From positions 1-51,616 of the forward strand of contig JBEEHC010000125.1 of assembly GCA_041167205.1 (NCBI GenBank): a stretch of DNA of 51,616 nt, in the 5' to 3' direction. The position numbers and the translations under genes are program-made. Source of the stretch: Verrucomicrobiota bacterium. GTDB taxonomy: Bacteria; Verrucomicrobiota; Verrucomicrobiia; Chthoniobacterales; UBA10450. Below are positions 6,104-51,545 of the stretch, piece by piece. Position 1 is the stretch's first letter. Each line of letters starts with the position of its first letter. Under the pieces are notes generated by a model. That model was not told the origin of the DNA, did no database searches, and saw only the letters and a program-made list of their open reading frames with translations.

Positions 6104-7120
6104 CTAGCTTGATATCGTTAGGACCACGCGGAATCGCACCTTGCCGCTGTGCATCTGCTCGTAGGCTTCCGCTACGCGGCTGAGCGGGTATTTCTCGATC
6201 ATCGGGTGCACGCCGCTCAACGCGCTGAATTCCAATGTGTCCTGCGAATCTTTCGCGGTGCCGGAATACCACCCCGACACCGATCGCCTTCCCATGATCA
6301 ACGGCATCACGTTCACGGACAACGGTTCGTTAGGCGCGGCCGGCACCAGCAGGTTGCCGTCCGGCGCCAATCCATCCACCAGCGCGGAAATCGCCTCTGC
6401 GTTCGGCGCTGTTCCCAGGATCACGCGCGCGCCGCCGAGCTTTTGCAATTCCGCCGCCGCATCGCCACTGCCGGAATCGATGTAGTGATGTGCGCCCAGT
6501 TTTTTCGCCAACGGTTCTTTATCCTTTCCGCGGCCCACCGCCACGGTCTTGAATCCCATCTGCCGCGCGTACTGCACTCCGAGATGTCCCAGTCCGCCGA
6601 TGCCGTGCACCGCCACCAGGTCGCCGGCGCGCGCGCCCGAATGGCGGAGCGCGTTGAAGACGGTGACGCCCGCGCACATGAACGGCCCGGCTTCTTCCGC
6701 CGGCAATTCATCCGGAATCACGGCCAGCACCGCCGCCGGTGCGATCAAGTACTCGGCATATCCGCCGTCGAAATCGATCCCGGTGACTTTGCGATTGACG
6801 CACATGGCGAAGTCCCCGCGCCGGCACGGTTCGCAAACGAAACAATGTCCTCCATGCCAGCCCACCCCGACGCGCTGGCCTTTGCTCCATGCAGTGACGT
6901 TGGGGCCGACCGCATCGACGCGGCCCGCGATCTCGTGACCCGGCACGCGAGGAAATTGAAGCCCCGGCCAGATACCCTCCTTGACGAGCATATCGCTATG
7001 GCAAATGCCGCACGCCTCCACCTTCACGCGAACCTGCCCGGCGCCTGGCTCCGGGATCTCGCGTTCCACCAATTCAAAATCCCCACCCGCTTTGCTGATC
7101 TGCGCCGCCTTCATCCTCAT
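6104..7120 (-). CDS. zinc-dependent alcohol dehydrogenase (AdhA-like, MDR superfamily)
   Basis: GICHSD catalytic Zn motif, structural Zn cysteines (CFVCEPCRRGDFAMC), and GIGGLGH Rossmann motif. An alternative start lies two codons downstream (7114). Confidence 0.9.
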   Translation of the reverse strand: MRMKAAQISKAGGDFELVEREIPEPGAGQVRVKVEACGICHSDMLVKEGIWPGLQFPRVPGHEIAGRVDAVGPNVTAWSKGQRVGVGWHGGHCFVCEPCRRGDFAMCVNRKVTGIDFDGGYAEYLIAPAAVLAVIPDELPAEEAGPFMCAGVTVFNALRHSGARAGDLVAVHGIGGLGHLGVQYARQMGFKTVAVGRGKDKEPLAKKLGAHHYIDSGSGDAAAELQKLGGARVILGTAPNAEAISALVDGLAPDGNLLVPAAPNEPLSVNVMPLIMGRRSVSGWYSGTAKDSQDTLEFSALSGVHPMIEKYPLSRVAEAYEQMHSGKVRFRVVLTISS

Positions 7121-7133
7121 AATGCGATTACTC

Positions 7134-7220
7134 TCGTGGACGGATAAGGCGTCCAGCTATTGGACATATGAGGGATTTATTCCCACTGCCTCGGAACGAG
7201 CACCGCCTCGTCCTTTCGAA
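7134..7220 (-). promoter_or_regulatory. conserved intergenic element copy S1 (upstream of ADH)
   Basis: Aligns without gaps to 8072..8158 (75/87 identical by hand count). Contains the cccactgcctc core and the hairpin ACGAG-caccgc-CTCGT. Confidence 0.7.
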
Positions 7221-7252
7221 CGAGATGATGCCACGGCTTCACTATTTCCCTG

Positions 7253-8008
7253 TCAACGCAGACCACCCGCGACGCGCAGCGTTTCGCCTGTAATCCACGC
7301 GCTGTCTGGAGAAGCGAGGAACACCACGGCCGGCGCGATATCATTTGGTTGAGCGATGCGGCCGAGCGGCGTGCGCGCCGTCGTTTGTTTTTCGAAGTCA
7401 CTTCCCGCGAAACCGCCGGCATCGAAGCCTTCGGTTACAACGGGGCCAGGATTGATGGCGTTCACGCGGATGCCCTTTGGTCCAAGCTCATTTGCCAACA
7501 CGCCGGTGATTGCATCCACTGCACCCTTCGTTGCCGAGTAAACTACCGACATCGGCGGGGTTGCTGAGCTCGCGAGAGAACTGATGTTAATGACACTGCC
7601 CCCTTCCGGCCCAAAATGTTTTGCGGCCTCCTGGGTAGTTAAGATTAGCCCGAGAACGTTCGTGTTGAACTGCCGGTGAAACTCATCCTCGGTCACTGCT
7701 TCCAGGGGTTCGAAGCGATAGACGCCCGCGTTGTTGACGAGAATATCGAGCGCGCCGAAAGCCTTCTTCGACTCCGCGAATAAGCGATCAACCTCCGCCT
7801 TCTTGGCCACATTGGCTTGGACCGCCACGGCCTTTCCACCCTTGTTGATAATCTCGGCTACGACCTTGTCAGCGTCTGTCTTGCTGGAGGCGTAGTTGAC
7901 GATCACCGCGGCGCCTTCAGCCGCGAGATGTTTGGCGATGGAAGCGCCAATTCCTTTCGATGCGCCCGTCACGACCGCGACTTTCCCGTTCAGTTTTCCG
8001 TCTTTCAT
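7253..8008 (-). CDS. SDR-family oxidoreductase (FabG-like)
   Basis: TGASKGIGASIA cofactor motif, NNAG, and the S...YSATK catalytic motif. Confidence 0.9.
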   Translation of the reverse strand: MKDGKLNGKVAVVTGASKGIGASIAKHLAAEGAAVIVNYASSKTDADKVVAEIINKGGKAVAVQANVAKKAEVDRLFAESKKAFGALDILVNNAGVYRFEPLEAVTEDEFHRQFNTNVLGLILTTQEAAKHFGPEGGSVINISSLASSATPPMSVVYSATKGAVDAITGVLANELGPKGIRVNAINPGPVVTEGFDAGGFAGSDFEKQTTARTPLGRIAQPNDIAPAVVFLASPDSAWITGETLRVAGGLR

Positions 8009-8071
8009 TGCGTGCCTCTCATTTTTTGGTTTTTTGGAAATTCATCACCTCCACTGGTGTAAAATCTAACT

Positions 8072-8158
8072 TCGTGGACAGACGAGGCATCCAGCCAGTG
8101 GACATAGGAGTGATTTGTTCCCACTGCCTCAGAACGAGTACCGCCTCGTTCTTTCGAA
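8072..8158 (-). promoter_or_regulatory. conserved intergenic element copy S2 (upstream of SDR 7253..8008)
   Basis: Same 87-nt element as S1. Perfect 7-bp hairpin GAACGAG-taccgc-CTCGTTC. Confidence 0.7.
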
Positions 8159-8293
8159 GGAGGTGTAGCGACCCCGCCCCCAGACGGGTTGCCGATCTAG
8201 AGGACCGGCAGGCGATGCGCCCGCCCTACAATTCTTGGATTTGTGTAGGACGACCGCTCCGGTTGCCAGCGGCGCTCGTCCCCACGTCTTTTG

Positions 8294-8704
8294 CTAAGAA
8301 GGGTGCGTTGGAAACGTATCTCCAAACATGGGATGTCCGCTCTTGGACTGCTCGCTGGTGGCCTCGTCCTGGATGACATCCCAATGCTCGACCAGAATCC
8401 CGTCGTTGATGCGAAGGATGTCCGCTGCAATCCAGTTCACGGGCTGGCCGAAGCCGGAAAATCGCCCGTGTACGATCACCAAGTCTTTCTCGGCCACAAT
8501 CGTGCCCGGTTCATACTCGAACTCCGACGGCATGCTCTTGATTAAATCAAACAGACCTTCACGCCCGGGGGCGATGTGAGCGCTATGCTGGATGTAGTTG
8601 GGCGACCAATAGCGCTCAGCCGCCGCGTAGTCACGTTTGTTGAATAGAGTGTCAAAAGCCTCGAGTACGAGTGCCTTGTTTGTTTCTTGTTGGGTTGGGT
8701 TCAT
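8294..8704 (-). CDS. SnoaL-like / NTF2-family protein
   Basis: NKALVLEAFDTLFNKRDYAAAERYWSPNYIQHS...VEHWDV is the SnoaL polyketide-cyclase-like pattern. ATG 8704 has a GAGGA Shine-Dalgarno. The track ORF extends to a GTG at 8740. Confidence 0.75.
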   Translation of the reverse strand: MNPTQQETNKALVLEAFDTLFNKRDYAAAERYWSPNYIQHSAHIAPGREGLFDLIKSMPSEFEYEPGTIVAEKDLVIVHGRFSGFGQPVNWIAADILRINDGILVEHWDVIQDEATSEQSKSGHPMFGDTFPTHPS

Positions 8705-21780: not shown

Positions 21781-22188
21781 TCAATGAACCAGAACGGGCC
21801 GGCTGGATTGGCGGGAGGTCGCAAAAGCGCCGCGCGCTGCGAAAACCCTGGCCAAAGATCCTCTAAACGAAGTGGAAAGCGTTTCAGCCATTCGTCGTGA
21901 CCGCCAATACCAACCGGGCGGGGTGTCTGACAACAATTCTGCCCGTTGCACTTCCGGAGATAAGCCGAGTGCTTCGCACACGTTCAGGAAGGAGTAGGGC
22001 CAGATGAAATCGTTCGATGCGACCCAGCTGTAGGCGTCTCTGTACATCTCGCGTCCGACGCGATCCAGCGCTCCGCGAAATCTCCGCAAGTCCTGTTTCG
22101 CTTGAACCATTACGCCCTTGGCTAAAGCAACGTGAGGTCCGGAACTCGCTAACGCTTCCGCCGTTTCATCGCTCTGGATCGTTTTCAT
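21781..22188 (-). CDS. hypothetical protein
   Basis: 135-aa ORF directly downstream of element S3. No motif recognised. Confidence 0.45.
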   Translation of the reverse strand: MKTIQSDETAEALASSGPHVALAKGVMVQAKQDLRRFRGALDRVGREMYRDAYSWVASNDFIWPYSFLNVCEALGLSPEVQRAELLSDTPPGWYWRSRRMAETLSTSFRGSLARVFAARGAFATSRQSSRPVLVH

Positions 22189-22219
22189 CACGCGAAAGGT
22201 TAATCCTCCGCGTCAATCT

Positions 22220-22286
22220 CCAGCCATTGGGCATAGGAGGGAATTATTTACACTGCCTGCGAAGGAGATCCGTCTCCTCCCTTTGG
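22220..22286 (-). promoter_or_regulatory. conserved intergenic element copy S3 (overlaps the last codons of the histidine kinase)
   Basis: ccagccattgggcataggagggaattatttacactgcctgcgaaGGAGAtccgTCTCCtccctttgg. The core is shared with S1/S2/S4 and the hairpin has compensatory changes. Confidence 0.65.
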
Positions 22287-25200
22287 AGGAGGCTCGTCCC
22301 TGGGCCAGGAGGGCGCTCCCTGCGCGTAGGGGGAAATCACGACAATCTTTGTCCCTTTGCCGCGCGCACTCGTCACGCTCAGGGCTCCGCCCATTTGGGC
22401 GACACGTTCTTGCATTCCGGTAAGACCGAAGCCGTCATGATGCCCGTTCATCTTGAAACCAACCCCGTTGTCTTGAAGCTCCAAACGGACTTCCGTGGCA
22501 TTGAAGCTGAGCCGGGCTTCGAAGCGGGTCGCATGGGCATATTTGAGCGTGTTCGTTAACGCTTCCTGCCCGATATGCAGCAGGTTTTCCTGCACCAGCG
22601 GCGAAAGTTCGCGTGTCTTGCCGCGACGTTGGAACTCGGCGTGAAGGCCTGTGCCCGCGGTGGCATCCTTGATGAGGCTTTGGAGAGCTTGCCAAAAGGC
22701 GGCATCTTCCAACGCTTGTGGCCGCAACGCGCGCACCGACCGGCGCGCTTCATTCAAACCTGCCCGCGCCAGATCGCGTGCGCTTTGGAGATGATTGATC
22801 GCGTCCTTCTTGTAGCCTTTGGTGGTTGCGTCGTCGGCCGCCTGCAATTGAACGATCACGCCCGTGAGCCCCTGCGCCAAAGTGTCGTGGATGTCTCGCG
22901 CCATTCGATTGCGTTCTTCCAAGACCGCTGCGCGCCGACTTTGGTCGGCAAACTCATTGAGTTGAATGGCGAACATCGCCTGGTGGGCAAGCGCTTGCGC
23001 CAATTCGATCTCCTCGGGCCGGTAAGACGGTCGAGCTGTGTGGCGAATGCCGATGAATCCCTTCACCTGCCCACCCACTAAAGTTGGAATCACCAGAAAC
23101 TTTCTGGTTCCCCTCGAGCGGAAATAGTCGCGAAGCGCGATCGACACACGCGGATCGTTTTCAATGTCTTCGCACGCAAGCGGAACCCCCGTGAAAAACA
23201 TCTCCGGCAGCCCGGGATTATCTCTCCACGAGAGCGGATCTTTCACGAACGGATGTTCCGGCTCGACGGCGGCAAGATTTGCGCCATGCACGCCCCCACG
23301 CCAAACGAGTGCATCTGTCGGTTCGTCTAGTAACCACAAAACGACACCCGGCGCGTTCAAGAGGCGGCCAATTGTGCTCAGCATTTGCCCAATGAATTGC
23401 TCAGGCGGAGGCGCGGTCGCGAGAATGTCGAGGCTTTGCACCAAGGCCTCGACTTGTCCTCGTGCCACCTGCTCGGAAGCCTGCAACGCGCCTTCCGCTC
23501 GTTTCCGCTCAAGGGCAATACTGGCCAGATGGGTGATCTGTTCAATAATTTCAAGCTGTTCCGAAGTGGGAGTGCGCGGCTCGCGATAATAAATCGCGAA
23601 CGTCCCCAGCACCCTGGCCTCTGAGGAGAGAATTGGGGTCGACCAGCAGGCTCGCAACCCATGCGGTAAGGCGAGATCGCGATAGTCGGCCCAAAGCGGA
23701 TCGGTCGCGATGTCAGAAACGATTACCGGCTGCGCCCGGTAAGCAGCCGTCCCGCATGAACCCGCCGAAGGGCCAATGACCGCGCCGTCGATCGCGTCGA
23801 TGTAGGCTTGGGGAAGGCTGGGTGCGGCACCGTGGCGCAGCTGAGTGCCATTCGGCTCCAGCAACAAGATGGAAGAGAGAGCCCCGCTGGACAGCTCCTC
23901 GACCAGCCGGCATAGAGCATCCAGAATAATGGGAAGCGAATCGCCCCGAGCCACCATCTCAAGCAGCCGCTTTTCTCCAGCCAGTAACGCCTCCGCGTGT
24001 TTGCGGGCGGTAATATCCACCGTGGTCCCGATATAGTTATCTATGTCGCCGGATGGCGTTATGACCGGACGGCCCACACCCTGGACATTCCTAATCGATC
24101 CATCCGCCAGCGCGATTCGGAATTCCATGTCAAAACCGCTCCTTTCGCGCACGGCCTCCTCGAGACCTCGCTCAATAGATGATCGATCTTCCGGATGAAC
24201 CGTTTCCAAAAATAATTCGAAAGATGGCTCGGCCTTTTCCGGATCGAAGCCGAAGATCCGGAAATGTTCGTCCGACCAGACGACCTTTCCGGTGGAGAGG
24301 TTCCAACCCCAGGTGCCGGTGTGACTGATTCTCTGGCCATCAGCGAGAAAACCCTCGCTTCGCCGCAGAGCCTCCTCGGCCCGATCCCGCTCAATCGCCA
24401 CTCGCGTGAGGTGCGTCGCTAGCTCGATCAACTCGAGGTCGTGCGAGTTCGGGCTTCGGGGTTCGCGATAATATAGGCAGAAGGTTCCCAAAACTCTTCC
24501 TTCCGACGAAAGCACTGGATTCGACCAGGAAGCTCGCAGCCCATGTCTTAAGGCCGAAGCACGATGCTCCGGCACGTCCCAAAGTGGATCGGTCGCAAGG
24601 TCGGAGACGATGACCGCCGATCCCCGGTATGCCGCCGTCCCACACGAGCCGGCGCAAGGACCGATGGGCAGACTGGCCATTTGCTGTGTCCATTCTTTTG
24701 GAACACTCGGTCCCGCCACGGAATCCAGATGAAGGCCATCGGCGCGAAGCAACAAAACAGAAGCAAGCGTGCCGGTTCGCTGCTCTTCGATCACTCGGCA
24801 CAAGACATCGAGGATGCTGGCCAGCGGCGCGCCTGTCGCGATCATCTCGAGCAGGCGTTTTTCACCGGTGAGCAGTGCCTCTGCGCGTTTGCGTTCGGTA
24901 ACGTTTTTAACCGCGCCAACGTACTCAGCGACCATTCCTGATTTGTCTTTCACGGCATGACACAGGATCTCGAGATGCTTGATCGATCCGTTGGGCATCA
25001 CGATTCGATGTCCGTATTCGAAATCTTTCATCTCCCGGGCTGCCCGCTCGACGGTTTGATCACACGAAGCGAGATCGTCCGGATGAATCCCTTCGCGCGC
25101 CCGCTCGAGAGTGGGCTTGGTCGATGGATCCCATTCATAGATTCGAAACACTTCCTCCGACCAAAAAATCTCGCCGGTGACAACATTCCAACTGAAGCTG

Positions 25201-25556
25201 CCAGTAAGACTGAGGCGTTCGGACTCTGCCATATAGGCCCGCGTTTGCCGTAGTGCTGCCTCTGCCCGCTTGCGCTCAGAGTTTTCCTGGAGGAGCTCCG
25301 CGTTATGCCGGGTGATGAGGCGGATTTGATACAGCGCAAACAACAGCATCACAAACCCGGCCAGTGCGGCCACGGGAAACCACACGGTTTGATAATACGG
25401 CGTCTGGGAAACGGCTCCGACCAGCCCGGGAATGCCGTCCTGAGCGGACCAGGGCGGGCGAGTGATTTGATTGATTGATTTCTGCGGATTGAGCGCGTTG
25501 GCAAAATCACTCAACGCGAACGCCATTACCAGGACACTGGCACACAGAACTTTCAT
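22248..25556 (-). CDS. sensor histidine kinase: 2 TM, PAS-GAF-PAS-GAF-GAF, HisKA_3, HATPase_c (NarX/DegS type)
   Basis: The H-box ARDIHDTLAQGLTG is typical of HisKA_3. The C-terminus carries an ATPase G-box (GFGLTGMQERV). Two internally duplicated PAS-GAF modules are present (L[TA]GEKRLLEM...GSCGTAAYR...). Confidence 0.9.
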   Translation of the reverse strand: MKVLCASVLVMAFALSDFANALNPQKSINQITRPPWSAQDGIPGLVGAVSQTPYYQTVWFPVAALAGFVMLLFALYQIRLITRHNAELLQENSERKRAEAALRQTRAYMAESERLSLTGSFSWNVVTGEIFWSEEVFRIYEWDPSTKPTLERAREGIHPDDLASCDQTVERAAREMKDFEYGHRIVMPNGSIKHLEILCHAVKDKSGMVAEYVGAVKNVTERKRAEALLTGEKRLLEMIATGAPLASILDVLCRVIEEQRTGTLASVLLLRADGLHLDSVAGPSVPKEWTQQMASLPIGPCAGSCGTAAYRGSAVIVSDLATDPLWDVPEHRASALRHGLRASWSNPVLSSEGRVLGTFCLYYREPRSPNSHDLELIELATHLTRVAIERDRAEEALRRSEGFLADGQRISHTGTWGWNLSTGKVVWSDEHFRIFGFDPEKAEPSFELFLETVHPEDRSSIERGLEEAVRERSGFDMEFRIALADGSIRNVQGVGRPVITPSGDIDNYIGTTVDITARKHAEALLAGEKRLLEMVARGDSLPIILDALCRLVEELSSGALSSILLLEPNGTQLRHGAAPSLPQAYIDAIDGAVIGPSAGSCGTAAYRAQPVIVSDIATDPLWADYRDLALPHGLRACWSTPILSSEARVLGTFAIYYREPRTPTSEQLEIIEQITHLASIALERKRAEGALQASEQVARGQVEALVQSLDILATAPPPEQFIGQMLSTIGRLLNAPGVVLWLLDEPTDALVWRGGVHGANLAAVEPEHPFVKDPLSWRDNPGLPEMFFTGVPLACEDIENDPRVSIALRDYFRSRGTRKFLVIPTLVGGQVKGFIGIRHTARPSYRPEEIELAQALAHQAMFAIQLNEFADQSRRAAVLEERNRMARDIHDTLAQGLTGVIVQLQAADDATTKGYKKDAINHLQSARDLARAGLNEARRSVRALRPQALEDAAFWQALQSLIKDATAGTGLHAEFQRRGKTRELSPLVQENLLHIGQEALTNTLKYAHATRFEARLSFNATEVRLELQDNGVGFKMNGHHDGFGLTGMQERVAQMGGALSVTSARGKGTKIVVISPYAQGAPSWPRDEPPPKGGDGSPSQAV

Positions 25557-25596
25557 TCAGCTGCGGGCGCCGAAATCGGCTTTACTGAGCAAGCTC

Positions 25597-25639
25597 ACTT
25601 TTTAACACTGCCGAGAACGAGTTTCGCAGATTAATCTGC
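25597..25639 (-). promoter_or_regulatory. partial element copy S5 upstream of the kinase, containing the palindrome GCAGATTAATCTGC
   Basis: aacactgccgagaacgag matches the cccactgcctcagaacgag core. The hairpin position is occupied by a longer stem containing a 14-bp perfect palindrome (25626..25639). Confidence 0.5.
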
Positions 25640-25750
25640 TCTTGTCAGCAGCGATCGGCCGCACCGGACGGAGCTCGGAAACGACAGCCGTTCCGGAGAT
25701 AAACGAATCATAAGAATTATCCGACCGCCGGCGTTAAATACTCTTGGTTT

Positions 25751-25978
25751 TCAGCAAAAGCGGACCGCGCTAGCACGTTTTCCGGGCCGCCAGCCACCAC
25801 TTGCAGTCCAAGTTGCGCCATATGCTCTTCGGCCAATGTCGCCGAGGTCGGGATAAGCCTGTTGATAATTCTGTTGCAACCGGTTTTTGAGACGCGAAAT
25901 CGCGGCGGTCAATGCCTCGAGGAAAATAGGAATCGGCTGCGGCACCCTGTCCGTCACGATGGAATTACTGCTCCTCAT
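25751..25978 (-). CDS. small hypothetical ORF downstream of element S4 (doubtful; possibly frameshifted)
   Basis: 75-aa track ORF. After PDLGDI a +1 frame reads more protein-like (AEEHMAQLGLQVVAGGPENVLARSAFAENQEYLTPAVG*). No homology recognised. Confidence 0.25.
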   Translation of the reverse strand: MRSSNSIVTDRVPQPIPIFLEALTAAISRLKNRLQQNYQQAYPDLGDIGRRAYGATWTASGGWRPGKRASAVRFC

Positions 25979-26024
25979 TTGGTTTAGTAATCACCGGGGA
26001 AAGTTAGTGACGCGATTGCCGTGT

Positions 26025-26091
26025 CCGCCATTGAGCATCGGACGTAATTATTTCCACTGCCTCAGGACGAGCGCTGGCTCGTCTCTTTAAA
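26025..26091 (-). promoter_or_regulatory. conserved intergenic element copy S4 (between the response regulator stop and the small ORF/kinase)
   Basis: ccgccattgagcatcggacgtaattatttccactgcctcagGACGAGCgctgGCTCGTCtctttaaa. Confidence 0.65.
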
Positions 26092-26118
26092 GGAGCCCGG
26101 AAAACTCGCCTAACGACA

Positions 26119-26871
26119 CTAAAGCTGAATCAGGCCGCGCTGGTTGGCGGCAGCAATGGCTTCGGTTCGGCTCATCACATTCAATTTCGAAAAAATGCTT
26201 CTGACGTGGGTCTTTACGGTGGTTTCGCTGATGAAGAGATCTGTGCCTATCTCCTTGTTGCTTCTGCCGCGAGCAAGCAGCTTCAGCACATCGATTTCAC
26301 GCCCCGTCAACGCTTCCCCGCTCATGCGTGACGCGAGCTTGGCCCCGAGAGCGGGGGGAATGCAGGTTTCCCCGGCGTGCACTTTTCGAATCGCGTCTAA
26401 TAGTTCGTCCAACGGCGCGTCCTTCAGCAGGTAGGCCCTCGCTCCTGCCCGGACCGCTTGATAGATTTCCTCATCGGTATCGTAGGTGGTGTGCACGATC
26501 ACCCGTGCGGAAACATCCAAGTCGCGAACTTCTCGGATCACGCCGACTCCGTTCAATTGCGGCATACGCAAATCGAGCAGGGAAACATCGGGGAGATGCT
26601 TCTTCCATAACTCAACCGCTTCGCGGCCATCGCTGGCCTTGGCCACAACGGTCATGTCATCCTGTCGGCCAATCGTCGCCGCCAAACCCTCGAGGATCAG
26701 CGCATGGTCGTCGGCAATGAGGAGGCGGATCTTTTTGGTGCGAGATGTCTTGTCGATTCCGCGACGAGTCTGAATTCGAAGTCGTGACGAAGAAGCAGAA
26801 CTTTTTTTGGCTTTCGGCTTCCTCTTCATCTCATCGGCGATTGCTCGCTTTACCTGCCACTGTGATATCAT
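26119..26871 (-). CDS. NarL/LuxR-family response regulator (REC + HTH_LuxR)
   Basis: IRLLIADDHALILEGL...DLRMP receiver domain and a C-terminal LTGREIDVLKLLARGRSNKEIGTDLFISETTVKTHV. There is a K/R/S-rich N-terminal extension. ATG 26829 is an alternative start that avoids the receiver remnant. Confidence 0.9.
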   Translation of the reverse strand: MISQWQVKRAIADEMKRKPKAKKSSASSSRLRIQTRRGIDKTSRTKKIRLLIADDHALILEGLAATIGRQDDMTVVAKASDGREAVELWKKHLPDVSLLDLRMPQLNGVGVIREVRDLDVSARVIVHTTYDTDEEIYQAVRAGARAYLLKDAPLDELLDAIRKVHAGETCIPPALGAKLASRMSGEALTGREIDVLKLLARGRSNKEIGTDLFISETTVKTHVRSIFSKLNVMSRTEAIAAANQRGLIQL

Positions 26872-26902: not shown

Positions 26903-27039
26903 CGGTCTTGCTTTTGTCATATTTGATTCATTTCGAGCAGACGCCGTCGTGTCGCGAAGCAAATGCCAATGAGGCGACGCAGCCGGAATTTGCGCGTTGT
27001 GCAGCGCACCCGGATGAGTAATTTGCGATCCTCGTAAAC

Positions 27040-27112
27040 GCACCGCTAGCTCAATTGGCAGAGCAAGTGACTCTTAATCACTGGGTTGTTGGTTCGATTC
27101 CAACGCGGTGCA
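27040..27112 (+). tRNA. tRNA-Lys (anticodon CTT)
   Basis: Hand-folded cloverleaf. Acceptor GCACCGC/GCGGTGC, D arm GCTC-AATTGGCA-GAGC, anticodon arm AGTGA-CTCTTAA-TCACT, T arm GTTGG-TTCGATT-CCAAC, discriminator A. CCA is not encoded. Confidence 0.9.
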
Positions 27113-39767: not shown

Positions 39768-39784
39768 AAGAAAATGCGAACACC

Positions 39785-39907
39785 ATCTAACGAGAACAAG
39801 ATGAGCGACGCCTGCCGAGAGCGCGCGTCGATTGGAATGAAGGTGTTTTCATAATCTGGTGTGACGCGCCAGAGCGGCCAGCGGTTAGCTGCAGCGATTG
39901 GTTAGGT
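39785..39907 (-). repeat. attC-like site A (123 bp)
   Basis: Minus strand: ACCTAAC-caatc-GCTGCAGC...GGCGTCGCTCATC-ttgttctc-GTTAGAT. The ends fit RYYYAAC and GTTRRRY. It is similar to site B at both ends with a divergent centre. Confidence 0.6.
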
Positions 39908-40321: not shown

Positions 40322-40325
40322 ACGC

Positions 40326-40448
40326 ACCTAACGAGAATAAGATGAGCGACGGCTGGCGGGAGAGCGCGTCCCTGTGGATTGAGGGTGGATTTTCACGCAA
40401 GACTACGAACCAAAGCTGCCAGCCGTTCGCTCCATCGCTTGGTTAGAT
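40326..40448 (-). repeat. attC-like site B (123 bp)
   Basis: Minus strand: ATCTAAC-caagc-GATGGAGCGAACGGCTGGC...GCCAGCCGTCGCTCATC-ttattctc-GTTAGGT. It has an 18-bp inner stem with two unpaired bases (G, A) on the 5' arm. Confidence 0.65.
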
Positions 40449-41600: not shown

Positions 41601-41670
41601 AAATGTAGAGGCGTTTGTGTCAAACGCCTGTTGTATTGGTTCAGGCGCTTGGCACAAGCGCCTCTACATT
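41601..41670. repeat. REP-like palindromic element R1 (AATGTAGAGGCG...CGCCTCTACATT)
   Basis: Terminal 12-13-bp inverted repeats enclose two inner hairpins (GGCGTTTGtgtCAAACGCC, AGGCGCTTGgcaCAAGCGCCT). Confidence 0.7.
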
Positions 41671-44600
41671 CACATCGCGGCCAGGATGTGTTTGATGCCG
41701 CGAATGGGAATGACGACCCAGCTCGGGCGATTGTTCAGCTCGTAGCCGACTTCGTAGACAGCTTTGTCGAGCAGATACGCTTCGAGCAGGACCTGGAGAT
41801 CGCCCTCGCGTGGCGGGATGAAAGACGCTCCCCTGGTCGTCTTGAGATATCTCTGCAAGAAAACGCTGCTCATCTGCCGATACCAAAGATCGGCCCAGCG
41901 CTCGAGGAACGGGATGTCTTCCGGACGCATGGCGGGCTGCCAGAGCGCGCTGTAAGCGGCGTACTGGAACGAGCGCATCATGCCGGCGACGTCGCGCAAC
42001 GCGGAACGCTTCAGCTTGCGCTCGCTGAGCGGACGCGCCGGCTCGCCTTCAAAATCGAGAATGACGAAATCCTTTCCGGTATAGAGCGCTTGTCCGAGGT
42101 GGTAGTCGCCGTGAATGCGGATCTTCGAGGCGGCGGAACGTTGATCGAGAATGCGCTGCTCCTGCGCGAGGATCTTCTGTTCCGCGGCGAGCACTTCCTT
42201 CGCTTCCACTTGGAACGCTTCGGGGAGGCCCGGCAATTCTTTTTGAAGCAAGGCAAACGCGCGGCGCAACGATGCGCGCATATTTTGATAAACGGAACGC
42301 TGCGAGAGCGCGTTGAATGGTTCGGGCGCGAAGGCGCGATCGTCCGGGTCGGAGGCGAGCGCGAGATGCAGCTCGCCGGTCCGTCGGCCGAGCAGCTTCG
42401 CCTTTTGCGGGTAGATGCCGCCGATCAATTCCTCCAGGAGCGGGCCGGGCGGCGCGTGCTCGATCTGCAAATCCGCTTTTCGCCCCAGCACCCGCTCGTA
42501 AAAGCGACCGACGGAATCGAGCGTGAGCGCCCACGCATCGCCTTCATTGGCCACGGCGGCCTGCAAAAGACAAACAACCGTCGGCTCAAATTTTCCCCGG
42601 CGATATTCGATCGCGCCGGCAAACGCGGGCACATGCGCGAATCCGCGCCGCTCGGTCAGGAACCGGGTAATCTCGACGTCGGGATTCACGCCATCCTCGA
42701 GCTTGCGGTAAAGCTTCAGGAAAAATTTGTTCTCGAACAACATCGACGAGTTGCTCTGCTCCGCCGCGACGACATGGGAGGGCGGAATCTTATCGTCGAG
42801 CGTCAGCGCGCTGCCGGGCGCTCCCAGCAGATCACCGGATTTTCCTTTCAAACTCTGACCTTGCGTGATGGTCCGGAAAAGGTGCTCCCGGAAAGCGGCA
42901 TCCCAGATCGCATCGTGAAGGATCGCTTCCTCCGCGCCGGCAAAACGCGCGATCACCGCCTGCGGGGCCGCTTTGGCGATCGCATGAGCCGGTTCTCCGA
43001 CGGCGATCTGTACGGGCAGCGCGTAGGTCTCCGGCGGGCCGTCAGTGTATGTGACTTCGAGGAACCAGAACTGCGCGCCACCTTCGCCAGGCATCGGCAC
43101 TTGCTCCGCAATGCGCAGCTCGCGAATCGTGCGCGCTTTCGCGCCGAACCAACGGCAATGCCGAATGAAATCCGGCAAGACCTCCCGCTCGAAACGGGAG
43201 CGCTGACCATCGGCCAGAAGCGTCTGCAAATTCGGCGCGGCATTGAGCGTGGGCACGACGCGCTCTTGTGACGCGCGCACGGCGGCCGGCTGAGCGCGGA
43301 GCACAAACCAGTAGTGCGCGTGCGGCCCGAGCGTAATCGGATACGGGGATTCCTTGATCGCGGGGAAGTAGTTTTGGCTGAACACCTCCATCAGGCTGCA
43401 ACCCGCGAAGCGTGACAGGTCGATCTCCGCCGCCTGCGAAAACCGTGACAGGTTCACGACGACGAGCATGATCTCGTCTTCGTGCCGGCGCAGAAATGCC
43501 AGGACCTTCGGATTATCCGGATAGAGAAACTCGAGCGAGCCGCGCGAAAACGCCTTGAAATTTTTTCGCATCGCGATGACGCGGCGCATCCACCACAGGA
43601 GCGACGACAAATTCTTCTGCTGATTTTCGACGTTGATTGCCTCGTAGTGGTACTCCGGGTCGATCGTGATCGGCAGATAAAGCTGTTGCGGATTCGCCTT
43701 GGAAAAACCAGCGTTGCGGTCGGGGCTCCATTGCATCGGCGTACGCACGCCGTTGCGGTCGCCGAGATAAAAATTGTCGCCCATCCCGATTTCGTCGCCG
43801 TAGTAGAGGACGGGCGTCCCGGGCATGGAGAAGAGCAAAATATTGAGCAGCTCGATCTTGCGGCGGCTGTTCGCGAGCAAGGGCGCGAGGCGGCGGCGGA
43901 TGCCGAGATTAATGCGCGCCAGCGGATCGTTCGCGTAAACGCGATACATGTAATCGCGCTCCTCGTCGGTCACCATTTCGAGAGTGAGCTCGTCGTGATT
44001 GCGCAGGAACATTGCCCATTGGCAGTTCTCGGGAATCGCCGGTGTCTGATCTAGAATGTCGATGATCGGAAATCGGTCCTCCATCTGCAACGACATGAAC
44101 ATCCGCGGCATGAGCGGAAAGTGGAAGTTCATGTGCGACGCGTCGCCTTTGCCGAAGTAGGCCACGGCGTCTTCGGGCCACTGGTTTGCCTCGGCCAGAA
44201 GCATGCGGCCTTGGAAATGCGCGTCGACGTGCGCGCGTAATTTCACCAGGTATTCGTGCGTCTCGCGAAGATTCTCGCAGCTCGTCCCTTCGCGCTCATA
44301 TAGGTAAGGCACAGCATCGAGCCGCAAGCCGTCGACGCCCATGTTCAGCCAGAAATCGAGCACCTTCTCAACGAGGGCGTGGACCTCCGGGTTATCGAAA
44401 TTCAGGTCGGGCTGATGCGAATAAAAGCGGTGCCAGTAATAAGCCTTCGCCACCGGATCCCACGACCAGTTCGAGGTCTCGAAATCTTTGAAGATGATCC
44501 GCGCCTCCTTGTATTTTTCCGGCGTATCGCTCCAGACATATAGGTTGCGCTCCGGCGATCCGGGCGCGGCCCGGCGCGATTTCTGGAACCACGGGTTGTG

Positions 44601-45076: not shown

Positions 45077-45934
45077 TTATTTCTTCGGGAGGGCCATCGC
45101 GGAAGCCGCGACGCACTGCCACTCGCCGTTACGCTCCACCCAAGTGTCGGTAAAACGATAGGCCTGCGAAAAAGCCTTGCCCGCCAGAGTCTTGCCGGTT
45201 TCCCGCGCGATGCCGGTGACGACCGCCACGCTCGGACCGAAAAAATGCACAGTCATATCGGAGGACGCGGCGGTCGCGTAGACGTTCTTATCTTTCCGCG
45301 CCTCTGCAATCATCGTCGACTTGTTCCCCACCTTGCCGCTGGAGGAAGTGCCGACAAAGTCGTCCGCCACCAGCTGCTCGATGATCGAGACGTCATGCGT
45401 CAGGAAGGAACTTTCCCAACGTTGTTCGAGAGCTTTCAACTTCGAGCCGATGTCGCCTTGGTTTTGATCCAGGGCCGGTGACTCAGCGGGAACCGGCGTT
45501 GAGATCGGAGTTGGTTTCGGCGTTGGTTTTGGGGTTGGAGTTGCGATTGGCCTGGGGGTCGGAGTTGGTTTGGGTCTGGGCGTTGCAACTGGTCTGGGCG
45601 GTGGAGTCGGTATTGGTCGGGGCGTGGTGGTCGCGAGCGGCCTCGGCGTTGGCAAGGCTACAGTCGCCGCTGGTCTCGGACGAGGAGACGCTATTGGCTC
45701 AAGAGTCGGCGTTGGTATCGGCTCGAAAAGGGGGGTCGTCATCGGCTGCAGAGTCAAAGTCTCCGTCGCTTCAGGCGTTGGACTCGGCCTCGATTTGGGC
45801 GGTGTCGAAATTGGCGTGACCGATTCTTCGGCCGGCGCCGGACTCTTGTGTTTGAAAGGAGTGGAGGCGGCATCTTGCGCCCGCACAAATGGCGCAGCGG
45901 CGAGGAAAAAGGTCGCGATTGCGAGTAAGCGCAT
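45077..45934 (-). CDS. secreted protein: signal peptide, Pro/Thr-rich linker, C-terminal DUF4440/NTF2-like domain
   Basis: MRLLAIATFFLAAAPFVRA, then PTP/PRP repeats, then LEQRWESSFLTHDVSIIEQLVADDFVG...WVERNGEWQCVA. Confidence 0.75.
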   Translation of the reverse strand: MRLLAIATFFLAAAPFVRAQDAASTPFKHKSPAPAEESVTPISTPPKSRPSPTPEATETLTLQPMTTPLFEPIPTPTLEPIASPRPRPAATVALPTPRPLATTTPRPIPTPPPRPVATPRPKPTPTPRPIATPTPKPTPKPTPISTPVPAESPALDQNQGDIGSKLKALEQRWESSFLTHDVSIIEQLVADDFVGTSSSGKVGNKSTMIAEARKDKNVYATAASSDMTVHFFGPSVAVVTGIARETGKTLAGKAFSQAYRFTDTWVERNGEWQCVAASAMALPKK

Positions 45935-51397: not shown

Positions 51398-51463
51398 ATG
51401 TAGAGACGCTTGTGCCAAGCGCGTGGCCAAATAATAGGCGCTTGGCACAAGCGCCTCTACATT
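51398..51463. repeat. REP-like palindromic element R3
   Basis: GATGTAGAGACGCTTGTGCCAAGCGCG-tggccaaataat-AGGCGCTTGGCACAAGCGCCTCTACATT. Same architecture as R1. Confidence 0.7.
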
Positions 51464-51545
51464 CAGCAAAAGACCGTTGCGCGATGGCGATCTTTCGCGA
51501 ACAGTTTGTCTCCGTCAGGGGCTATGGACTGAGGACTTACGAACC

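Follow-up and report, generated by a model that had tools for sequence, protein, structure and literature searches.

What is the element that recurs, nearly unchanged, in front of two oxidoreductase genes of a soil Verrucomicrobiota bacterium (Chthoniobacterales, UBA10450), and does it act as a promoter, as an mRNA leader, or as both? The window analyzed here is the whole 51,616-nt stretch of contig JBEEHC010000125.1 (assembly GCA_041167205.1). Its first-pass annotation had aligned positions 7134–7220 and 8072–8158 of the plus strand without gaps, with 75 of 87 identical nucleotides, and had placed these copies 5′ of the minus-strand start codons of an alcohol dehydrogenase (ADH) gene (7120) and a short-chain dehydrogenase/reductase (SDR) gene (8008), at distances of 13 and 63 nt, respectively. 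Our realignment gives exactly the same count, and both distances are correct. We find that the two copies belong to a larger family whose 69-nt core is followed at a fixed distance by a −10-like hexamer. On the strength of sequence comparison we favour, with some reserve, the reading that this core is the upstream part (approximately −101 to −33) of a σ70-type promoter shared by the members of a NarL-type two-component regulon in Chthoniobacterales.

Repeat finding delimited a four-member family in the window, with 69-nt cores S1 (7156–7224), S2 (8094–8162), S3 (22223–22291) and S4 (26027–26095), all on the minus strand and each directly 5′ of a minus-strand gene. A covariance model run with its filters off, a check proposed in the first-pass annotation, recovers these four full copies at 75–89 bits (88.5, 81.5, 86.3 and 74.7 bits for S1 to S4; S1 also scores 74 bits with nhmmer), while the next match reaches 13 bits and the opposite strand of the window has no copy. 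The pattern GGCAGTGNNAANAANT has five matches in the window, all on the minus strand, against a chance expectation of 0.16. S1 and S2 lie 5′ of the ADH and SDR genes, respectively, and orthologous copies of S2 precede SDR orthologues in the related loci L004 and L006. S3 overlaps the final codons of a sensor histidine kinase gene (TAA stop at 22248–22250) and lies 5′ of a gene for a 136-aa protein, an arrangement kept in L015, L016, L019, L022, L023, L025, and L026. S4 is positioned between a response-regulator gene and a small open reading frame (ORF), as it is in L008, L011, L015, L016, and L019.

Of the three further copies announced by the first-pass annotation in the same orientation, two are thus full members (S3 and S4), whereas the third, at 25597–25639, is not a full copy. 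This S5 locus (about 25 nt, 25597–25621, minus strand, some 40 nt 5′ of the kinase ATG at 25556) has in common with the family only CTCGTTC-tc-GGCAGTG-tt-AAaAAgT, the rest of the conserved block being missing. Because it is found neither by nhmmer (E ≤ 20) nor by the covariance model (E ≤ 10), S5 may be considered a relic at best, outside full membership. The conserved block and the stem sequences of S1–S4 had been quoted correctly; the long-stem palindrome GCAGATTAATCTGC assigned to S5 does exist, but it is not homologous to the family hairpin.

Relatives were collected in several ways. Scanning one genome per species with a strict 20-base pattern yielded one true match, in front of the SDR orthologue of a Chthoniobacterales metagenome-assembled genome (MAG), and two chance matches; either the element is restricted to this clade or the pattern is too strict. 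With the same pattern, metagenome contigs yielded eight true and five chance loci, nhmmer applied to the loci found in this way added three more diverged copies, and further contigs were obtained via seven homologues of the small ORF. One 1.8-kb metagenome contig was identical to the window sequence. The resulting set comprises 30 distinct copies from the window, the Chthoniobacterales MAG and soil metagenomes, which score between 28 and 79 bits, with noise below 10 bits. All but one of them are gapless over the 69 columns, and these 29 have a mean identity of 86%.

Every one of the 30 copies lies on the same strand as its downstream gene, which belongs to one of ten families: ADH, SDR, the small ORF, the 136-aa protein, cupin, enoyl-CoA hydratase, DUF302, a 52-aa/NDH-2 pair, a Fer2/molybdo-enzyme operon, and a kinase operon. 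Together with the orthologous positions of the copies, this supports the proposal that the element is a selected, orientation-specific cis-regulatory family. Two subtypes, GGGAAYAAAT (ADH, SDR, DUF302) and GNAAATAATT (the remaining families), differ at the linked columns 43 and 49. A diverged copy (L026:4089–4156, 28 bits), in front of an operon for Fer2, FAD-binding and molybdopterin oxidoreductase proteins, has lost the hairpin and GGCAGTG; it retains GGAAATAATTCC...CCCAATAG, that is, the AT block plus CCCAATAG, together with TAACTT at offset 20, and shows what appears to be the most constrained half of the element.

The core opens with three heptamers of the form CTCNTYC, namely A (columns 1–7, direct), B (columns 12–18, inverted, GGACGAG), and C (columns 25–31, direct, CTCGTTC), which in S1 occupy 7218–7224, 7207–7213, and 7194–7200. 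They are separated by 4 nt (GAAA) and by 6 variable nt, spacings that are kept in 29 of the 30 copies, and position 4 is the freely varying one in all three heptamers. Rigid spacing combined with a free central position in three half-sites is the pattern expected of protein-DNA recognition. The earlier suggestion that an inverted repeat next to a strongly conserved block resembles a protein-binding site is therefore in line with the sequence comparison. Past heptamer C, the core continues with 3 nt, GGCAGTG (7184–7190 in S1), the AT-rich (G)AAATAATT, CCGTCCTATGCCCAA, and T(A/G)GC. Between heptamer C and the −35 region, 35 bases (GGCAGTG-GAAATAATTCC-GTCCTATGCCCAATAGC) are nearly invariant and contain no internal repeats; in the alignment, columns 44–48 (AA.AA), C63, T66, and G68 show little or no variation. 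Two further candidates in the core were rejected: a leader peptide read from a conserved ATG (MSNSW...), since 12 of the 30 copies have TTA or ACG in place of this ATG, and a GGAA/TTCC mini-hairpin with a GGCA/TGYC helix, which is 79% paired, shows no covariation and changes register with the subtype.

Downstream of the core, a −10-like hexamer nAnnnT begins 18–20 nt after column 69 in all 30 copies and in front of all ten gene families; in one copy, the sequence reads TAAGAG at offset 19 and AAGAGT at offset 20. The stricter form TAnnnT is present in 21 copies, with background frequencies per position of 0.0049 for TAnnnT and 0.048 for nAnnnT. The hexamer varies with the subtype, being TAACCT, TAGCCT or TAACTT in the copies associated with the two-component system and GAGAGT, GAAGGT or GAAGTT in the ADH/SDR subtype. 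Within the window, S1 is followed by GAGAGT (7130–7135), which begins 20 nt past the core and lies 9 nt before the ADH ATG (7120); S2 by GAAGTT (offset 20) overlapping TAGATT (offset 25) at 8063–8073; S3 by TAACCT (22197–22202), with the GTG start codon (22191) 5 nt further on and the same spacing in 8/8 orthologues; and S4 by TAACTT (26001–26006). A −10 distance greater by 5 nt in the ADH/SDR subtype was considered and discarded, given that nAnnnT (GAGAGT or GAAGKT) is found there at the same offset. The invariant T66 and G68 stand 17–18 nt 5′ of the hexamer, where the T and G of a TTGnnn box would fall.

Two RNA genes of the window are informative in this respect: tRNA-Lys(CTT) and the signal recognition particle (SRP) RNA are preceded by TTGTGC-16-TAATTT (within 26990–27040, plus strand) and TTGCGC-17-AACAGT (within 51470–51513, plus strand), respectively, and canonical σ70 geometry thus seems to be used in this organism. 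A scan for canonical σ70 promoters detected no strong one on the element. The copy L004:6698 lies between two divergently oriented genes, the one on the opposite strand being MgtC, a location which requires a local transcription start for its gene.

The positions of the start codons point in the same direction. The start codon follows the hexamer by only 5–6 nt in all eight orthologues of the 136-aa gene and in the cupin and enoyl-CoA hydratase genes. Among the four ADH copies, S1 and L005 have a distance of 9 nt, and the remaining two are ambiguous. No Shine-Dalgarno sequence stands at the normal distance from the start codon of the 136-aa and cupin genes. These short distances suggest that the mRNAs of the 136-aa, cupin, enoyl-CoA hydratase, and ADH genes may be leaderless or nearly so. 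The small-ORF and SDR genes have leaders of 50–60 nt with normal Shine-Dalgarno sequences, as illustrated by S2, whose leader of about 55 nt to the SDR ATG (8008) carries GAGAGG. As for the choice left by the first-pass annotation between promoter, leader, or both, the fixed −10-like hexamer after every copy and the start codons 5–9 nt beyond it favour the promoter. We also observed that C-(G/A)-TGAT-(C/T), which surrounds the predicted start at columns 101–106 of alignment A4 (e.g., window 22187–22192; L011, L019), is common to the small-ORF and 136-aa groups and doubles as the start codon only in the latter.

Taking the hexamer as −12 to −7, with transcription starting approximately 6 nt after it, heptamer A would span −101 to −95, heptamer B −90 to −84, and heptamer C −77 to −71, the dyad of B and C being centred at about −80.5. 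GGCAGTG would extend from −67 to −61 and the A/T block from −59 to −52, a position like that of an UP element; CCAATAGC would overlap the −35 region, and T(A/G)GC would open a weak −35 box followed by a 17–18 nt spacer and the nAnnnT −10 box. Transcription of the 136-aa, cupin, enoyl-CoA hydratase, and ADH genes would then begin at the start codon or within a few nt of it.

The most plausible reader of the heptamers is encoded beside two of the copies. A gene for a NarL/FixJ-type response regulator (26119–26871, minus strand; receiver plus GerE helix-turn-helix domains in Pfam), whose nearest solved structures are ChrA, VraR, DesR, NarL, and DevR, stands directly upstream of the element in the window, L008, L011, and L015–L021. 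In all these loci the gene order is GerE regulator, element, small ORF, kinase(s), HisKA_3 kinase, element, 136-aa gene, and the segment formed by kinase, element and 136-aa gene is conserved also in L022–L026. HisKA_3 kinases are known to partner NarL/GerE regulators, and the binding sites of NarL, DesR, ComA, GacA, and DevR consist of heptamer or hexamer repeats, inverted as well as direct. The linked regulator probably binds the core. In the mechanism that we propose, the adjacent HisKA_3 kinase(s) would phosphorylate the regulator, which would bind the heptamers as a dimer or tetramer and recruit RNA polymerase to the weak −35 box, acting as an activator rather than as a repressor. The system would thereby induce its own kinase operon, generating positive feedback, as well as dispersed oxidoreductase, detoxification and efflux genes.

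The hairpin formed by heptamers B and C had been described as covarying, and this claim fails in the alignment of 29 copies. Both arms, GGACGAG/CTCGTTC, keep their sequence, and both-sided changes occur at only two stem pairs. Pairing of columns 12–18 with 25–31 is seen in 93–95% of the cells, compared to 40–55% in slid controls, almost entirely because the sequence of both arms is conserved. RNAalifold predicts on 29 sequences and 69 columns a single 6-bp hairpin (−4.95 kcal/mol) with a covariation term of +0.11 kcal/mol, and on 22 sequences and 113 columns a covariation term of −0.14 kcal/mol, without any structure in the other 80-odd columns; essentially no covariation is left in the larger alignment. 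The sole freely varying stem pair, 15:28, is CG in 19 copies, CA in 5, UG in 2, GC in 2, and GG in 1, and is broken in 6 of 29. Counted by lineage, this pair underwent about four pair-breaking events (the CTCATTC clade of L022, L023, L025, and L026; L019:14889; L022:9303; L025:7320) and three pair-keeping ones, consisting of a compensatory change in S3, genuine yet isolated, and wobble pairs in L006:4138 and L019:9850. The covariation score of the stem is matched by only 2–4 of 500 shuffles, a count to be read with the caveat that 5–25% of unstructured related alignments attain comparable values. Minimum free energy z-scores of eight copies are −1.6, −0.9, −2.5, −0.4, −1.0, −0.9, −1.0, and −0.1, and the corresponding folds disagree, pairing A with B in some copies and B with C in others. 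A hairpin that apparently covaries among five paralogous copies can vanish when 29 are aligned.

Other RNA-level features were examined and rejected. The alternative A:B helix of a putative attenuator has a mismatched central pair in 16 of 22 copies and shows no excess over shuffles or controls. The scan found no intrinsic terminator at the element, where the stem is followed by YGAGGCAGTG and not by a T run. A downstream hairpin around TTAAC, of 4–9 bp, is present in the 136-aa group and in some small-ORF copies and is missing in ADH, S4, and others; hence it is not a feature of the family. In agreement with the earlier statement that the element resembles no described riboswitch or leader class, it matches no Rfam family: at the gathering threshold of Rfam 15 the window yields only tRNA and SRP RNA, and at E ≤ 10 the region 7000–8300 gives only chance matches below 20 bits. 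A literature search returned nothing on such a motif.

How do these data weigh on the possible explanations? We consider it unlikely that the element acts as RNA, i.e., that as a 5′ leader or intercistronic segment it uses the B:C hairpin and the single-stranded block to bind a protein or ligand and controls translation, stability or processing. Several observations speak for such a role, and most of them weigh at the same time against a pure promoter: the excess of stem pairing over the slid controls, with the column pair 13:30 being G:T in 25 of 29 copies and such pairs forming only on the sense RNA strand; the low number of shuffles reaching the covariation score; the clean compensatory change in S3 and the multi-wobble variant L019:9850, which keeps six of seven pairs despite four changes; the gaps of 15–32 nt between the stop codon of the preceding same-strand gene and the element, so that read-through RNA would include the element and the copies are probably transcribed; and the second hairpin with variable arms, near the start codon of the 136-aa and some small-ORF copies, which in the 136-aa group brackets the TTAAC hexamer in a way that a plain −10 box leaves unexplained. 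On the other hand, the consensus structure is limited to one 6-bp hairpin of about −5 kcal/mol with covariation near zero, the shuffle counts are reached by unstructured alignments as well, the pair 15:28 is broken about as often as it is kept, the weak z-scores go with discordant folds, and Rfam is silent. Furthermore, RNA function would leave unexplained the conserved heptamer A, given the mismatched centre of the A:B helix, and also the fixed nAnnnT hexamer with start codons 5–9 nt after it; neither a terminator nor a platform sequestering the Shine-Dalgarno sequence is present, and the distance to the start codon ranges from 31 to about 100 nt.

The promoter reading meets additional difficulties of its own. 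The candidate −35 hexamer reads T(A/G)GCnn (T-R-G-C), a weak match to TTGnnn; in L022–L027 the response-regulator gene does not adjoin the element (8 kb away in L026, off the fragment in L022–L025); and the 35 near-invariant bases far exceed the needs of an UP element or of an ordinary spacer. For this block, an unusual sigma contact, a second factor or an RNA-level role are all possible. One version is that it represents the site of an alternative sigma factor, with an ECF-like (extracytoplasmic function) −35 box GGAAY/NAAAT (columns 42–46) and a −10 box CAATRG 16 nt further on, or with a start at an AATAAT box, the heptamers being an accessory operator. This is very unlikely in our view. It would account for the invariance of AA.AA, C63, T66, and G68, two copies carry GGGAAC, the classical ECF −35, the 16 nt between AAY and CAAT fit the known geometry of ECF promoters, and the genes concerned (OsmC, Dps/ferritin, ADH, SDR, efflux) are reminiscent of a stress regulon. 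However, sigma and anti-sigma genes are absent from the window and from the related loci examined, the sole exception being rpoN, at a distance of several genes in L016 and L019. The putative spacer and the putative boxes are equally conserved, a situation uncommon among ECF promoters. An AATAAT box would have no T at −7 in copies of the ADH/SDR subtype, and the alternative-sigma model also leaves the downstream nAnnnT hexamer without explanation. As to σ54, the nucleotides 12 nt past the GG of GGCAGTG are AA, and the signature GG-N10-GC (TGGCAC-N5-TTGC) is conserved nowhere in the alignment; σ28, σ32, and ECF consensus sequences misfit in spacing on direct inspection. It is likewise quite unlikely that the 35-base block and the hairpin are read by an undescribed factor specific to soil Chthoniobacterales, whether as a structured or protein-bound leader RNA combined with a promoter, or through a new mode of promoter recognition, for instance by the 121-aa or 136-aa proteins on a rigid 70-bp scaffold. 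Finally, we regard as extremely improbable that the element is a dispersed repeat without gene-specific role, of the kind of repetitive extragenic palindromes (REP) or miniature inverted-repeat transposable elements (MITE). It is short, repeated and intergenic and contains an inverted repeat, as these elements do. Nevertheless, we exclude this origin because the copies in front of orthologous genes of different organisms (ADH, SDR, small ORF, 136-aa) are near-identical while the flanking intergenic DNA has diverged. Moreover, the window has just four copies with none on the opposite strand, the spacing to the −10-like hexamer is constant, and the scatter in both orientations expected of such repeats was not seen among the 30 copies examined.

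In addition to the response regulator, the window encodes a sensor histidine kinase with PAS, three GAF, HisKA_3, and HATPase_c domains (22248–25556, minus strand; Pfam). The conserved 136-aa protein without known domains (21781–22191, minus strand), the product of the first gene after S3, is followed by genes for an SRPBCC protein, a hydrolase, a membrane fusion protein (MFP), and a resistance-nodulation-division (RND) pump. S1 and S2 precede the genes for a Zn-dependent ADH (6104–7120, minus strand), whose nearest NCBIfam likeness, under the cut-off, is the aldehyde reductase Ahr, and for the SDR oxidoreductase (7253–8008, minus strand).

In relatives the two-component locus is fuller: the small ORF is followed by a DUF4118-HisKA kinase and a receiver (or MEDS) gene and then by the large GAF/PAS/HisKA_3 kinase, and at the 3′ end the element and the 136-aa gene are followed by SRPBCC and then by hydrolase or MFP-RND genes. 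The small ORF after S4 (25751–25978, minus strand) is truncated or frameshifted with respect to a family of 121-aa homologues; in the segment 25560–25980 of the minus strand the conserved C-terminal portion recurs in a different frame. The kinase and receiver (or MEDS) genes that follow the small ORF in relatives are missing in the window, where the S5 relic occupies the gap. The damage to the small ORF and the gene loss near 25560–25980 suggest a past deletion or rearrangement. The 121-aa protein (e.g., L008:248–613) and the 136-aa protein are always the products of the first gene after an element, and neither has a match in Pfam or NCBIfam. The 121-aa family comprises 217 proteins without a Pfam domain, its sole taxon-labelled match being a Verrucomicrobiota MAG.

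The window contains other repeats and hairpins. The interval from the SnoaL gene to S2 contains a G+C-rich hairpin, GGCGGGCG-cat-CGCCTGCC (8213–8232, minus strand), which is kept in L006, with A:T replacing the G:T of the window. No T run comes after this hairpin, a possible terminator lacking the U tract. A perfect 30-nt direct repeat, AGGCGCTTGGCACAAGCGCCTCTACATTCA, occurs at 41643–41672 and 51436–51465 (plus strand) and includes an 8-bp hairpin GGCGCTTG/CAAGCGCC. One of its sites is directly past the stop codon of a 1120-aa minus-strand ORF and the other approximately 50 nt 5′ of the SRP RNA gene, with an imperfect inverted copy at 51399–51430, just before the 51436–51465 copy. A 46-nt direct repeat with 87% identity is found at 39784–39829 and 40325–40370 (plus strand), 541 nt apart. 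Lastly, 12-nt periodic repeats (GGNGTTGG...) at 45495–45585 (plus strand), within the region of a 285-aa minus-strand ORF, probably correspond to a repetitive coding segment.

If the promoter reading is correct, the element would define the regulon of an uncharacterized two-component system in abundant and mostly uncultured soil Verrucomicrobia (Chthoniobacterales), comprising aldehyde/alcohol oxidoreductases, SDRs, a cupin, enoyl-CoA hydratase, a molybdo-enzyme operon, SRPBCC/hydrolase genes, RND efflux and the kinases of the system itself. The motif could be used for mapping this regulon in metagenomes, and it would offer an initial view of promoter architecture in the phylum, and perhaps of leaderless mRNAs; it would not open a new class of mechanism.

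The closest parallels are the promoters activated by NarL/FixJ regulators, such as those with NarL heptamers, the des promoter bound by DesR, the tripartite ComA site, and the 6-N6-6 sites of GacA/UvrY. Here too we find a receiver plus GerE regulator with a HisKA_3 kinase, 7-nt half-sites in inverted and direct arrangement at fixed spacing, the inverted pair being parted by 6 unconserved bases, sites located 5′ of a putative weak −35 box, and a kinase operon that is apparently autoregulated. Unlike in those systems, the heptamers would lie far upstream (about −71 to −101) and are followed by 35 near-invariant, repeat-free bases, and binding of the regulator is in this case a prediction; the half-site CTCNTYC is not known for any characterized NarL/FixJ member. 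In the DosR/DevR regulon of mycobacteria, the GAF-containing HisKA_3 kinases DosS and DosT act on a NarL-type regulator that recognizes a 20-bp palindromic box in front of stress genes. The kinase of the window likewise combines GAF and HisKA_3 domains, DevR figures among the solved structures nearest to the regulator, and a palindromic box of about 20 bp precedes a dispersed stress/redox regulon including the kinase operon; however, the sequence of the box is unrelated, the phylum is another one, and the kinase here carries PAS domains as well, to which relatives add a receiver domain. UP elements are A/T-rich sequences at about −57 to −38 bound by the C-terminal domain of the RNA polymerase α subunit. 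The invariant AA.AA.T at about −59 to −52, as numbered from the predicted start, is comparable in a genome of 58% G+C, but the block does not reach the length of the full consensus, and conserved G/C-rich sequence surrounds it. With leader RNAs and riboswitch candidates of the CMfinder type (Rfam), the element shares the nature of a conserved, oriented intergenic hairpin motif in front of functionally related genes, whereas it differs from them in lacking covariation, a multi-helix architecture, an expression platform and an Rfam match, and in having a −10-like hexamer downstream.

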